This document shows positions 48,050 through 50,215 of a stretch of 64,000 nucleotides of DNA, piece after piece. Position 1 is the first letter of the stretch, and every line of letters starts with the position of its first letter. A program made the translations under genes and the position numbers. The notes under the pieces were generated by a model. It had not been told where the DNA came from, searched no databases, and worked only from the letters and a program-made list of their open reading frames with translations. Origin of the DNA: a virus (taxonomy: Duplodnaviria > Heunggongvirae > Uroviricota > Caudoviricetes); the IMG/VR virus record IMGVR_UViG_3300043036_000338; one strand, 5' to 3'.

Positions 48050-48172
48050 CAGGATCAACTTTTTGCTACGTGTGCTAACCATTACACTAGTGACCCATTT
48101 GGCGCCACTTGGGATTCGAACCCAAACTCCGATCGTTCAATGATATGCTATTTGTTGCTGTAATGATCCTAA
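48050..48172 (-). ncRNA. inverted-repeat-bounded tRNA-like element E2 (candidate Y-RNA-like/tRNA-mimic)
   Basis: outer stem AGGATCA/TGATCCT; internal T-arm TTGGGTTCGAATCCCAA plus ...GTGGCGCCA; D-arm-like GTGTAATGGTTAGCACAC placed after T-arm; ~370 nt downstream of rsr. Confidence 0.35.
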
Positions 48173-48332
48173 AATTTTACGTTTGTTGTAGATATGGTTT
48201 AATTTCCCAGAGACCATCGGTCACTGTAACACAAAAGTGTTTAGTCCCCAATGTCACGATCCATCTTTTATTCATTCGAGTATCTCCAAAATTATGTAGC
48301 CACGACCCATTACAGGTCGTAGCGAGCATTCA

Positions 48333-48490
48333 TCAATCAAAGTCTTGATAAGAGGTGCCGATAATCTTATCAGAGCCACCATACTTATCAAGCATTTTTT
48401 CAAATTCTTTACGATGATCAACTTTTGGTTCAGCTTCAGGTTTTTTCTTTTTCTTTAAAAAATCCTTAAACTTATCTATTGTTCTTTTCA
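48333..48490 (-). CDS. small Lys-rich ORF between rsr and element E2
   Basis: manual ORF MKRTIDKFKDFLKKKKKPEAEPKVDHRKEFEKMLDKYGGSDKIIGTSYQDFD. Confidence 0.25.
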
Positions 48491-48537
48491 TTCAGACACC
48501 TTTAAAGGAAATTCCAGCTATGACTATTTATACAGTC

Positions 48538-49965
48538 TTAGTAATCATACCGAGCATTAAGTAATGTACGACACATGACGTTGTAAGGAGTGTAATCCTC
48601 AAGGTCGTTTGCAAGAACACTCTTCATGATGGAAGGAGAGAAACCAGACACAAGCGCAGTGCCGTTCTTGTCGAACTTAACTGGAGTGTTGCCATTTTCT
48701 TTGCCATACATTGACAAGTTCCAGAAAACGATTTTAGGAAGATCATAGCCTGCATCCTTATACTTTCGCTTGATCATCTGCATTGCAGAGTCATCATAGC
48801 GAGTGCAAGAATCGAACTGCATGTCAGACAATACCAACATCATGTCAGGCATATCTTTCTGAGCCACTTTACCCTTGACAGCAATCTTCAGGATTTCATC
48901 AAATGCTGCGTGTAGGTTGGTGTTCATTTGCCAAGAAGATGTTGACATTTGATCCATCTTCTGAGACAGGGTGCCTTTCAGATGCAACATTTCTGGGTGT
49001 CCAGAGAAGGTCAAGAACAAGTCTTTGAATGCACCAGTGTTCTTGCTTGCGCAGTAAAGACCAAGGGAAACAGCAATGTCGATTGGTTGTAGAGCGCTAC
49101 CTGTTGAGTAGTGAAGCGAACCCATAGAACCAGAGACGTCGACCATAGGCAGAACCTTTGCATCGCCGATGTAGTTAGGCAGAGCTTTCCATTGTTCATC
49201 AGCGACAGCTTTGTTACCCTTGATCACAGACTTCACAACATCATACGGATATACCGCACCAGCGTTAATCTTGACCTTTGGATCACGTTCTGCTTGAGGC
49301 TTCTTCAATTCAGCAATGTAAGCAGAGTAAGACTCTTTTGCATTACGACCGAAAGCCTTTTGGTAACGAGCAGATGCAACAGAAGGAACATGCGAGAAGT
49401 TGATAGCTTCCCATTCCTTAGAACACATCTGAGTTTCAACAACATTGGTCAAACCAACAATCAACTGACGGTATGCCTTTGGAGACAGACCTAAGTAGCG
49501 AGTTAGTTCAACAGCGACCGGACCTTTACGTGGACACCACTTTGCTGCCAGACCATTCTTTGCCTCAAGAGCTTCTGCAATCAAAGCAAACGCCTGATTA
49601 CGATTGGTAGCATCTTTGTATGCAAACAGGTCATCCCAACGACCAAGCGCAGGGATTTTGTGCATCAACTTACCAGCAAGAGTTGGGTCGGTAGACTCTA
49701 GCGCTGATAGCAGATTACGGAAGGTAGCACGTTCGCCTGCACCCTCGCGAATGTCACGAACCCACTGTAGCATACGCATAGTAAGATCGGCATTCTCAAC
49801 GAATGAAGTAACGAATTGTTTGGTAATGTCAGTACCACGGGCAGAGCCAATGATACCGAACAAGTCCAAAACAAGTGATGCCGAAGTGGCTTTAGCCTTC
49901 ATACCGTTTGCGGTACGGGCGACTGCTTTGGTCTTAGATTGTTTAACTGCATTTACGAAAGACAT
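48538..49965 (-). CDS. rsr: Ro60/Rsr orthologue (TROVE domain plus C-terminal vWA)
   Basis: 475 aa; TROVE-like N-terminal region; vWA MIDAS LPMVDVSGSMGS; SD AAGGAA upstream. Confidence 0.7.
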   Translation of the reverse strand: MSFVNAVKQSKTKAVARTANGMKAKATSASLVLDLFGIIGSARGTDITKQFVTSFVENADLTMRMLQWVRDIREGAGERATFRNLLSALESTDPTLAGKLMHKIPALGRWDDLFAYKDATNRNQAFALIAEALEAKNGLAAKWCPRKGPVAVELTRYLGLSPKAYRQLIVGLTNVVETQMCSKEWEAINFSHVPSVASARYQKAFGRNAKESYSAYIAELKKPQAERDPKVKINAGAVYPYDVVKSVIKGNKAVADEQWKALPNYIGDAKVLPMVDVSGSMGSLHYSTGSALQPIDIAVSLGLYCASKNTGAFKDLFLTFSGHPEMLHLKGTLSQKMDQMSTSSWQMNTNLHAAFDEILKIAVKGKVAQKDMPDMMLVLSDMQFDSCTRYDDSAMQMIKRKYKDAGYDLPKIVFWNLSMYGKENGNTPVKFDKNGTALVSGFSPSIMKSVLANDLEDYTPYNVMCRTLLNARYDY

Positions 49966-49977
49966 AGTATATTCCTT

Positions 49978-50062
49978 TTCTGGTTGGGTTTAAAGTGTGG
50001 ATTTGAACCACTTTTGATCTGTTGAAAGACAGATTGTTTTCCATTTGTTAGCTGAAACCAAC
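49978..50062 (-). ncRNA. tRNA-like leader element immediately 5' of rsr (tRNA-Glu-like anticodon hairpin plus T-arm)
   Basis: rc ...ATCTGTCTTTCAACAGAT (loop CUUUCAA)...AGTGGTTCAAATCCACA...AAACCCAACCA ending ~12 nt before rsr SD; acceptor not canonical. Confidence 0.35.
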
Positions 50063-50125
50063 CAATTCGGTTTCATAGTATATTCAGGATCGTGCCTTGC
50101 GGCGTTCCTTTTGATTACAAGTCAA

Positions 50126-50215
50126 ATGCTCTAACGAGCTCTAAGATGCTGTAACGATCCTATAATTTAGTCTGGATGATGTTGTCCGCTAAGACATCCA
50201 ATTTATTCTTCATAT
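50126..50215. other. inverted-repeat-bounded structured element E3 (CAGGATCGT...ACGATCCTA) followed by TTGTCCGCTAAGACATC hairpin motif
   Basis: same termini as E1/E2; second copy of the 17-nt motif. Confidence 0.45.

Follow-up and report, generated by a model that had tools for sequence, protein, structure and literature searches.

The small RNAs that surround a Ro60-like gene in a large tailed phage are likely to be the Y RNA equivalents of a divergent Ro60-like protein family, a member of which is encoded beside them. The Ro60/Y RNA particle is a long-studied, functionally murky RNP that occurs from humans, where it is a lupus and Sjögren autoantigen, to bacteria. The DNA analysed here, referred to as the window, is a stretch of 64,000 nt from a Caudoviricetes virus (IMG/VR record IMGVR_UViG_3300043036_000338), on which all coordinates are given. 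Its myovirus-type tail and baseplate proteins identify only a large tailed phage, so that the label "T4-like" in a first-pass annotation goes further than the window allows. The RNAs share a constant terminal structure, hereafter the handle, and differ in the tRNA-derived cargo between its two halves. Handle and Ro-like gene are linked in phages of many bacterial phyla, and this recurring pairing suggests a viral protein-RNA particle of a new variety.

The Ro-like gene and its protein

The Ro-like gene (48538..49965, minus strand) encodes a protein of 475 aa with a helical-repeat N-domain, as predicted, and a vWA/MIDAS C-domain. The protein matches DUF7788 (PF25043; 166.1 bits against a cut-off of 27.1, 9.3e-49) and DUF2828 (PF11443; 69.2 bits against a cut-off of 29), both above the curated Pfam cut-offs, and PHROG 850 over its full length (6.5e-142). 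The MIDAS motif DVSGSMG (residues 276-282) is invariant in 34 homologues, among which D276-x-S278-x-S280, T349 and D381 show no variation, and the C-domain matches many vWA structures in a predicted-structure search. These results confirm the vWA domain proposed in the first-pass annotation, which had also assigned the protein to the Rsr/TROVE family and its N-terminus to a TROVE-like domain. By sequence this assignment does not hold: a Pfam scan to E<=1 gave DUF7788 and DUF2828 only and no TROVE (PF05731), neither phmmer nor a profile of the 34 sequences found Ro60 among all PDB sequences, and an NCBIfam scan gave no match. The TROVE-like N-terminus stands as a predicted fold only. Ro60 structures are the best matches to the AF2 model, which is of moderate quality (pLDDT 69, pTM 0.52, TM-score 0.34), with 292-320 residues aligned with the top two, more than the vWA domain alone would account for, and Xenopus Ro60 is the sole Foldseek match in the PDB below 1e-3. 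At the level of fold class, though not of ring closure or the RNA-binding surface, the model appears to place the protein with Ro60, as the phage representative of a Ro60-like family that is both large and divergent. At 90% identity the family falls into no fewer than 7,900 protein clusters, and it occurs in at least 711 sequenced phages, including Felix O1, KVP40, A511 and the cluster-L mycobacteriophages; the cluster-L homologues carry the annotation "Ro-like RNA binding protein", and ORF86 of Felix O1 is ~40% identical to the window protein.

The window also encodes an RtcB RNA ligase (20290..21663, minus strand; Pfam RtcB 3.5e-32; PHROG 1075 "tRNA splicing ligase" 6.1e-78), as annotated at first. 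The gene lies outside the locus, 27 kb from the Ro-like gene, and the "rsr-yrlA-rtcB module" suggested earlier is therefore not an operon here. An RtcB homologue is found directly upstream of the Ro-like gene in the closest relative (L001) and 1.3 kb downstream of it in Listeria phage A511. Near the gene in only these 2 of the loci compared, rtcB was rejected as part of one module with it; RtcB is a possible functional partner of the Ro-like protein.

The handle and the RNAs that carry it

The handle consists of a 7-bp helix that joins the 5' and 3' ends of the RNA, usually with a U before it. The motif CAGC(A)A begins exactly 3 nt past the 5' strand of the helix, and on the 3' side there are an A-rich linker and an unpaired G directly past the 3' strand. 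The cargo ranges from ~20 to 290 nt. Because such variable length is heavily penalised by Infernal, we searched for handles with scripted pattern-plus-pairing scans and controls instead of a covariance model. In a test made without selecting on pairing, NUNCAGCAA occurs 208 times on the gene strand, and in 144 cases it is followed at 10-320 nt by its perfect 7-nt complement and a G, against 13 with a shifted 7-mer and 27 with a shuffled 7-mer, and on the opposite strand the partner is present in 3 of 115. Similarly, a scan of IMG/VR with the 5' half of the handle only gave 113 matches, in 94 of which the partner is present. An extension of the helix past 7 bp, with positions 8-10 pairing with the 3' linker, is unsupported (first position 32% paired vs 40% expected). 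No Rfam 15 family covers the handle in the window, where matches were sought also at E<=10, or in the Felix O1, A511 and LeBron loci, and we found no paper describing it; the handle is apparently undescribed before.

All window elements counted as members lie on the strand of the Ro-like gene. E3 (50085..50161, minus strand) has the stem AGGAUCG/CGAUCCU followed by UUA-CAGCA, with a cargo in which a short D arm and an anticodon-like arm (loop CUUGUAA) are accompanied by a GCAA-capped hairpin replacing the T arm. In a set of 14 orthologues, selected by BLAST homology, 100% of cells of the closing stem are paired and 5 of its 7 pairs are compensatory, the anticodon-like stem is 95.7% paired, and the covariation is 0.213 (slid controls, <=0.062). 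E1 (49980..50064, minus strand) lies in the 5' leader of the gene and has the stem UGGUUGG/CCAACCA followed by UUU-CAGCU, with a cargo of an anticodon-like arm (loop CUUUCAA) and a T arm; its 3' end is 14 nt before the ATG of the Ro-like gene and adjoins the Shine-Dalgarno sequence. E1 orthologues are found at the same position in seven related loci (L003, L007, L008, L011, L013, L015 and L016). The element is bracketed by an 11-nt direct repeat, AATATACTATG.

E2 (48050..48170, minus strand) has the stem AGGAUCA/UGAUCCU followed by UUA-CAGCA and a circularly permuted tRNA body composed of a T arm, a capped acceptor-like hairpin and a D arm. In an alignment of 28 E2-type sequences including Felix O1 and LeBron, 23 pairs are 91.9% paired compared with 35-47% in slid controls, and the covariation of 0.686 (<=0.165 in slid controls) was reached by none of 500 shuffles. 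Covariation is seen in all four helices, distant phages included. The same window carries a permuted tmRNA gene.

E4 (47275..47341, minus strand), located between tRNA-Ser and tRNA-Ala, has the stem AGGAUCG/CGAUCCU followed by GUU-CAGCA and a plain hairpin as cargo, with BLAST orthologues in L002, L008, L016, L011, L007 and other loci. E6 (45433..46308, minus strand; stem AGAAUGU/ACAUUCU followed by UUA-CAGCA and a T arm) is interrupted by a homing-endonuclease insertion of ~685 nt with a GIY-YIG (SegE-like) ORF at 45578..46210 (Pfam SegE_GIY-YIG 3.4e-7), and intact orthologues lacking the insertion are present in L011 (6311-6524) and L016 (7049-7238). A further candidate, E5 (42974..43059, minus strand; stem AGGAUGG/CCAUCCU then G), was left out of the members because its core is CUGCC, not CAGCA, and no homologue was found among the relatives' loci compared.

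The first-pass annotation had recognised the closing stem, the T arm and the D-arm-like hairpin of E2, extending it to 48172. For E1, placed at 49978-50062, the anticodon-arm-like hairpin, the T arm and the ending close to the gene were correctly seen, but the span is shifted and the closing stem was missed. The span 50126-50215 given for E3 holds its 5' half only plus promoter-proximal sequence, and E4, E6 and the handle that unites all elements had gone unnoticed. Covariation supports the idea that the elements beside the gene follow the Y-RNA plan, in which a tRNA mimic is attached to a terminal stem.

In the window alone, the handle pattern is no better than chance: there are 5 minus-strand matches against a simulated mean of 2.2, 33 of 200 simulations gave at least 4 matches, and the 13-mer AGGATCRTTACAG, with <=2 mismatches allowed, matches 6 times where 3.0 matches are expected. 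The reality of the window elements rests on comparison with other loci. None of E1-E6 is called as a tRNA by ARAGORN, and over E3 the tRNA model of Rfam scores 18.1 bits at best, below the threshold of 29; the elements are not tRNAs with a cloverleaf, a 7-bp acceptor stem and a free 3' end.

It is very improbable that the elements are decayed tRNA pseudogenes or MITE-like DNA repeats with short terminal inverted repeats and no RNA function. Such an origin would fit the cargo built of tRNA parts, the direct repeat around E1, the endonuclease insertion tolerated by E6 and the fact that neither ARAGORN nor Rfam calls the elements. However, MITE-like repeats would be expected in both orientations and free of RNA-level constraint, whereas the elements are strictly strand-specific (274 vs 36 strict-pattern matches; 42 vs 0 relative to the gene), and four helices are preserved by compensatory changes across distant phages. 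Moreover, the single-stranded CAGCAA is invariant at a fixed spacing from a helix of fixed length, and this conservation reaches across phyla.

Pairing of gene and handle across phages

A megablast of the window locus against 50,697 phage records gave no match. Of 89 related loci, 86 have a handle element no more than 500 nt from the Ro-like gene, and in 62 there is an element whose end is 13-35 nt upstream of the start codon. In IMG/VR stretches where the Ro-like gene is present, all 42 handle matches are on the gene strand, and their median distance from the gene is 492 nt. The handle adjoins the Ro-like gene in Felix O1, Listeria phage A511, mycobacteriophage LeBron and Campylobacter phage CPX, and also in Staphylococcus phage Alsa_4, Enterococcus phage EFDG1 and Sinorhizobium phage phiM7; it is further found in contigs binned with Bacteroidales, Erysipelotrichaceae, Peribacteria, Saprospirales, Endomicrobium and Fischerella. 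Between lineages the handle stems are wholly different, while CAGCAA and the 3' G are unchanged. In KVP40, there is a half handle only in the 5' UTR of the Ro-like gene, plus one 248-nt candidate after tRNA-Ser.

Handle copies also occur downstream of the gene, as in LeBron, Felix O1 and the window (E2, E4 and E6), and others are kilobases off among tRNA genes, where the elements are scattered through the tRNA clusters with short U-rich spacers between them, reaching about 5 copies in 8 kb. Such dispersal in tRNA clusters would be expected if the handle were a generic processing or stability cassette read by an RNase or another phage or host factor, with the Ro-like gene as a mere neighbour. 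We consider this rather unlikely. Many 5'-half matches do lie several kb away from the gene or in stretches in which it was not seen (48 of the 80 stretches found by the handle 5' half, each covering <=15 kb of DNA), and the Ro60-like protein gp130 of Bas63, discussed below, acts against Ppl without phage RNAs. On the other hand, the adjacency of gene and handle is kept across phyla as the only common feature of the locus, 86 of the 89 loci have an element close to the gene, and the elements are always on the gene strand. LeBron has no tRNA gene within 3 kb of the locus. The tRNA and stable-RNA clusters of T4 and T5, used as negative controls, have neither a Ro-like gene nor the handle, showing random-looking handle matches only and none inside the RNA clusters, and phages with a canonical TROVE Ro60 have a different handle.

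The position of many elements could also suggest that those next to the gene are chiefly cis-regulatory leaders, that is, translational operators or attenuators of the Ro-like mRNA, and not free small RNAs. In the 62 loci with the element 13-35 nt before the start codon it lies at the Shine-Dalgarno sequence, as E1 does. Moreover, the best match to a sigma-70-like promoter in 46800-51200 (50220..50248, minus strand; TTGACA-17-TATGGT with a TG extension; 10 of 12 consensus positions, predicted from consensus alone) is ~60 nt upstream of E3, so that E3 and E1 would form an mRNA leader. Yet a purely regulatory role seems improbable, more so than a generic cassette, since copies with the same handle are located downstream of the gene or kilobases off among tRNA genes, and an elaborate tRNA-like cargo with covarying T, D and acceptor helices would be needless for a simple operator. 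A leader role is compatible with the Y RNA-like interpretation as an added autoregulation. The Ro-like gene and the RNA array are probably co-transcribed.

Possible roles and comparison with known systems

From the adjacency of gene and handle and the analogy with Ro60 and Y RNAs, we infer that the handle RNAs are expressed, processed and bound by the Ro-like protein, and that they have a biological role based on this binding. The handle would be the putative binding site for the protein, and the cargo a tRNA mimic that may tether, titrate or decoy tRNA-recognising host factors during infection; in E1 and E3 the cargo consists of tRNA parts in normal order without the acceptor stem. Since E1 abuts the Shine-Dalgarno sequence, its occupancy by the Ro-like protein could also exert feedback on translation of the protein. 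The anticodon-like loops diversify rapidly: in close relatives their middle triplet is UUC, UAU, AUU, UGA, UGU, CAU, AUA, GAA or AUG on a fixed stem. More speculatively, and at a low probability, the handle RNAs could form a programmable counter-defence arsenal, in which one Ro-like ring protein would load interchangeable decoys made of tRNA parts; with these the phage would bait, sequester or sense host immune nucleases that target tRNA or nucleic acids, such as Ppl and anticodon nucleases. A similar explanation might then hold for the long-known "stable RNAs of unknown function" of some tRNA clusters in phages. The handle is simple and searchable. Our analysis flags hundreds of putative small RNA genes, unannotated so far and without an Rfam 15 family, within the tRNA clusters of phages, and what the phage Ro-like protein binds and does is directly testable in tractable phages.

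The Ro60-like protein gp130 of phage Bas63, encoded directly upstream of a phage tRNA stretch, was reported in a preprint to counter the Ppl defence (PMC11482910). This is the position of ORF86 in Felix O1, and from the position and the authors' structural description gp130 is very probably an orthologue of the window protein. Plasmid-expressed gp130 alone protected T7 from Ppl (PMC11482910), and therefore at least the anti-Ppl activity has no need of the phage's handle RNAs. As to RNAs, its authors went no further than to speculate that Y RNAs might be present among the annotated tRNAs; they do not describe the handle RNAs that we find in Felix O1 (L086, 5719-6552), which are concrete RNA candidates for this protein.

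Small non-tRNA RNAs, some of them tRNA-like, are also encoded among the tRNA genes of T4 (rnaC, rnaD) and T5 (RNAI, RNAIII, RNA1, RNA2 and others), but unlike the window these phages have no Ro-like gene, and the handle is missing from their stable RNAs. E2-type elements share a permuted order of parts with circularly permuted tRNA and tmRNA genes: the T arm and the 3' strand of the acceptor come before the 5' acceptor strand and the D arm. In most relatives, however, a small stable loop (e.g. UUCG, GUAA) closes the E2-type acceptor stem, so that the RNA would give no chargeable end, and E2 has no anticodon arm.

The closest parallel is with Rsr/YrlA (Chen et al. 2014, PMC4201824; RF02553). 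In both cases a gene for a Ro-like protein, here of a putative ring type, stands beside at least one small RNA, whose terminal stem is formed by its 5' and 3' ends and whose body is a tRNA mimic; the module order of E2-type elements (T arm, loop-capped acceptor stem, D arm) is that of YrlA, and RtcB is sometimes nearby. In contrast to Rsr, the window protein is DUF2828 plus DUF7788 by sequence, not TROVE, and in place of the YrlA motif GNCGAAN0-1G the RNAs have a 7-bp helix, N3-CAGCAA and a 3' G. Their modular cargo is a permuted tRNA in some elements only, and arrays reach about 5 copies. The elements are thus not YrlA, as had been suggested: RF02553 has no match in 47650-51000 of the window even at E<=10, and GNCGAAN0-1G occurs in 13 of 376 handle elements, the chance level. 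The best-scoring relative, in LeBron, reaches 39.8 bits against a YrlA gathering threshold of 69, through the tRNA-like module only, with the closing-stem columns of the model unmatched. A YrlA-type tRNA-like domain with a terminal stem is found in E2 and 27 relatives and not in E1, E3 and E4. Similarly, Thermus phage phiLo encodes phiRo60 together with Yrl1 and Yrl2 (NAR 2025, PMC12135203; PDB 9KOP, 9L5Y). There the protein is annotated as a TROVE-domain protein and the Yrls were chosen by the authors via the CGAA motif (PMC12135203), whereas the window family has neither. Because canonical TROVE Ro60 proteins use GNCGAAN0-1G (PMC4201824) and the family described here is paired with the CAGCAA handle, the type of handle tracks the protein family, and our analysis indicates a second, much larger Ro-like family with its own cognate RNA class.

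The Ro-like gene and its neighborhood

The ORF at 48538..49965 (minus strand) encodes 475 aa and lies within a minus-strand cluster of 23 tRNA genes (ARAGORN). The first-pass annotation took its product for a TROVE protein with a vWA domain. The TROVE identity did not survive the profile search: PF05731 is unmatched even at E ≤ 1, and Pfam instead places DUF2828 in the middle (4e-19) and DUF7788 in the C-terminal half (9.3e-49), with phrog_850 'RNA-binding protein' covering the whole protein (PHROGs, 6.5e-142). The vWA MIDAS motif DVSGSMG is indeed present and, together with T349 and D381 at further MIDAS positions, invariant in 34 homologs. 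Three more minus-strand tRNA-like genes match the Rfam tRNA model at threshold without an ARAGORN call (50889-50959, 50.5 bits; 50729-50799, 30.1 bits; 43919-43991, 44.4 bits). The window also has a circularly permuted, two-piece tmRNA gene of alphaproteobacterial type at 9934-10330 (-), scoring 99.6 bits with Rfam tmRNA_permuted and 86.7 bits with alpha_tmRNA, with the tag peptide ANENFAPEVRLAA (ARAGORN).

The rtcB gene proposed at 20290..21663 (-) was confirmed, 27 kb from the Ro-like gene. Its Pfam match is limited to residues 189-445 and PHROG 1075 spans the full length; the ~190 N-terminal residues give only a weak match to tRNA-nucleotidyltransferase domain 2 (E 0.001). In the closest relative (L001), whose Ro-like protein is 94% identical to that of the window, E3 and the Ro-like gene are immediately preceded by an RtcB homolog (1357-2781 of L001) with 50% identity to the window RtcB. 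In the Listeria phage A511 locus (L088, with coordinates of that locus) an RtcB 'tRNA splicing ligase' gene (5842-7053) lies 1.3 kb downstream of the Ro-like gene, and a ROOL RNA match (1498-2049; 87.5 bits, under the gathering score of 99.1) about 1 kb upstream.

The three structured elements reported to flank the gene share one architecture on the minus strand, a 7-nt stretch, 3 nt, CAGC(A/U) and, further on, the exact 7-nt complement and a G: E3 (50161..50085; AGGAUCG-UUA-CAGCA...CGAUCCU-G), E1 (50064..49980; UGGUUGG-UUU-CAGCU...CCAACCA-G) and E2 (48170..48050; AGGAUCA-UUA-CAGCA...UGAUCCU-G). We call the paired ends with their CAGC(A)A, A-rich 3' linker and unpaired G the handle, and the variable tRNA-derived part between the strands the cargo. 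A scripted search added, also on the minus strand, E4 (47341..47275), with a simple hairpin as cargo, and E6 (46308..45433), whose T arm is directly followed by ~685 nt of inserted sequence with the ORF of a SegE-like GIY-YIG homing endonuclease (45578-46210, -); the E6 orthologs in the related loci L011 (6311-6524) and L016 (7049-7238) are uninterrupted and 190-214 nt long. The split E6 RNA may be inactive, produced as two pieces or spliced. E5 (43059..42974, -), whose core deviates and for which no homolog was found among the fetched loci, was not counted as a member. The terminal helix is present in the single-sequence minimum-energy fold of every element.

The best sigma-70-like match within 46800-51200 (TTGACA-17-TATGGT, 50248-50220, -) is ~60 nt upstream of E3; the Ro-like mRNA would then have E3 and E1 as its leader. 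E1 is bracketed by two copies of an 11-nt direct repeat, AATATACTATG (50073-50083 and 49965-49975, -), which contains the gene's start codon; the bracketing suggests a cassette origin of E1, by insertion or duplication. A 28-codon uORF crossing E1 starts in the upstream copy.

Comparative tests of the handle

Because the generic pattern is no more frequent than chance in the window alone, the case was built on comparison with other loci. In 85 IMG/VR loci encoding relatives with 52-94% identity, 1-4 tandem copies of the handle architecture, with varied stem sequences, are found in almost every 230-nt region preceding the gene; short U-rich spacers part tandem elements in relatives and could be processing sites. 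The strict pattern occurs 274 times on the gene strand versus 36 on the opposite strand, and positions outside the selection are conserved too: the helix is preceded by U in 74% and has U at helix+2 in 82%, CAGCA is followed by A in 81%, the 3' linker is A-rich, and UU follows the closing G. In a pairing-blind test of 208 distinct NUNCAGCAA occurrences on the gene strand, with the partner sought within 10-320 nt, a perfect 7-nt complement followed by G was found for 144, compared with 13 for a shifted and 27 for a shuffled 7-mer, and with 3 of 115 on the opposite strand. The helix is exactly 7 bp, pairing at the next three positions being no more frequent than chance. An independent IMG/VR scan with the 5' half of the handle alone (TTTAGGWTNNNTNCAGCAA) recovered the partner strand in 94 of 113 matches; in the 32 stretches that also had the gene, all 42 matches shared the gene's strand, with a median distance of 492 nt. 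An element lies ≤500 nt from the gene in 86 of 89 loci, and in 62 loci one ends 13-35 nt before the start codon.

The gene-flanking handle extends to phages and contigs whose proteins are as little as ~30% identical to that of the window, with only helix length, CAGCAA and the 3' G constant. Felix O1 has four copies in a tRNA cluster just downstream of the gene (stems AGACCAA, AGACCGU), A511 three upstream, and mycobacteriophage LeBron three downstream (UGAGCGC, UGGACUC, UGGUCAC); the fetched 3-kb flanks of LeBron contain no annotated tRNA gene. It is also found in Campylobacter CPX, Staphylococcus Alsa_4, Enterococcus EFDG1 and Sinorhizobium phiM7, and in contigs binned with Bacteroidales, Erysipelotrichaceae, Izemoplasmatales, Peribacteria, Saprospirales, Endomicrobium and Fischerella. 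In EFDG1 the three handle RNAs upstream of the gene (2323-3000 of locus L092) each have another repeated hairpin, ATAGTTCC...GGAACAT, in front of them. In Vibrio phage KVP40 (locus L087) the gene's 5' UTR has a handle 5' half (3950-3995, ..GACATTTTACAGCAATTT..) that finds no 3' complement ahead of the start codon, and one 248-nt candidate element follows tRNA-Ser (589-836). T4 and T5, which lack the gene, have no handle elements in their tRNA and stable-RNA clusters.

Structure of the cargo

The alignment of E2 with 27 relatives, Felix O1 and LeBron copies among them, runs from the handle through a spacer, T arm, loop-capped acceptor-like hairpin and D arm back to the handle. The four helices, with 23 pairs in all, show 91.9% paired cells versus 35-47% with slid partners, and covariation is 0.686 versus ≤0.165, with 0 of 500 shuffles reaching 0.686; the sequences had been selected without regard to the T, acceptor and D helices. 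The E3 cargo has normal tRNA order: first a short D arm, then an anticodon-like arm whose loop is CUUGUAA, and finally a hairpin capped by GCAA; relatives L014 and L015 have a T arm at that last position. In 14 E3 orthologs picked by BLAST regardless of pairing, the closing stem is paired in 100% of cells, with compensatory changes in 5 of its 7 pairs, and paired cells make up 95.7% of the anticodon-like stem. The folds of both types are backed by covariation.

In the E1 cargo the D region is degenerate and is accompanied by an anticodon-like arm and a T arm. Between the window (49980-50064, -), the upstream elements of L003, L007, L008, L010, L011 and L013-L016, and L019, L024, L026 and L027, the stem, the flanking CU...A(A) of the loop and the remaining RNA are near-constant, and the middle triplet varies among close relatives (UUC, UAU, AUU, UGA, UGU, CAU, AUA, GAA, AUG; elsewhere UUU, UCU, UAU). 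This looks like diversifying change at the 'anticodon'.

Handle RNAs and known Ro60 systems

The best-supported reading of this analysis is that handle RNAs would serve the DUF2828/DUF7788 Ro-like family as Y-RNA equivalents, given the predicted Ro60-type fold and the direct analogy with Rsr-YrlA and phiRo60-Yrl. The main rival takes the handle for an RNA processing or stability device and the Ro-like gene for a mere neighbor; handles kilobases away from the gene speak for it, and the adjacency and common strand that persist across phyla argue for Y-RNA equivalents. On the Y-RNA reading the protein would bind the constant handle, and the variable cargo would be the effector part; binding, processing and biological role are our inferences.

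The most relevant prior work is the PhageMaP preprint (PMC11482910), which reports that gp130, the Ro60-like protein of Bas63, counters Ppl defense, suggesting a counter-defense role; expressed alone it suffices to do so for T7, so at least one activity is independent of phage RNAs. Its authors merely speculate that some annotated tRNAs could be Y RNAs. ROT/TROVE proteins were reported in a few jumbo phages (Iyer et al. 2021; PMC7824862), and a 2025 study of Ro60 from Thermus phage phiLo solved its structure and showed binding both to a pair of Yrl RNAs from upstream and to PNPase of the host (PMC12135203). Our literature search found no paper describing the handle or its RNAs, which are also without a model in Rfam 15. 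The first-pass annotation stands largely in its observations and partly in its interpretation. Its locus represents a variant of the Ro60/Y-RNA system that is widespread and, it appears, not yet described.

The YrlA motif GNCGAAN0-1G is absent from handle elements (13/376), and only the LeBron copy touches Rfam YrlA, below threshold (39.8 bits versus a gathering score of 69), in a match confined to the tRNA-like part with mismatched Ro-binding stem columns. The E2-type cargo has the YrlA module order. Handle type follows protein family, with CAGCAA in that of the window protein and GNCGAA in TROVE Ro60 systems (Chen et al. 2014; PMC4201824), which further favors Y-RNA equivalents.
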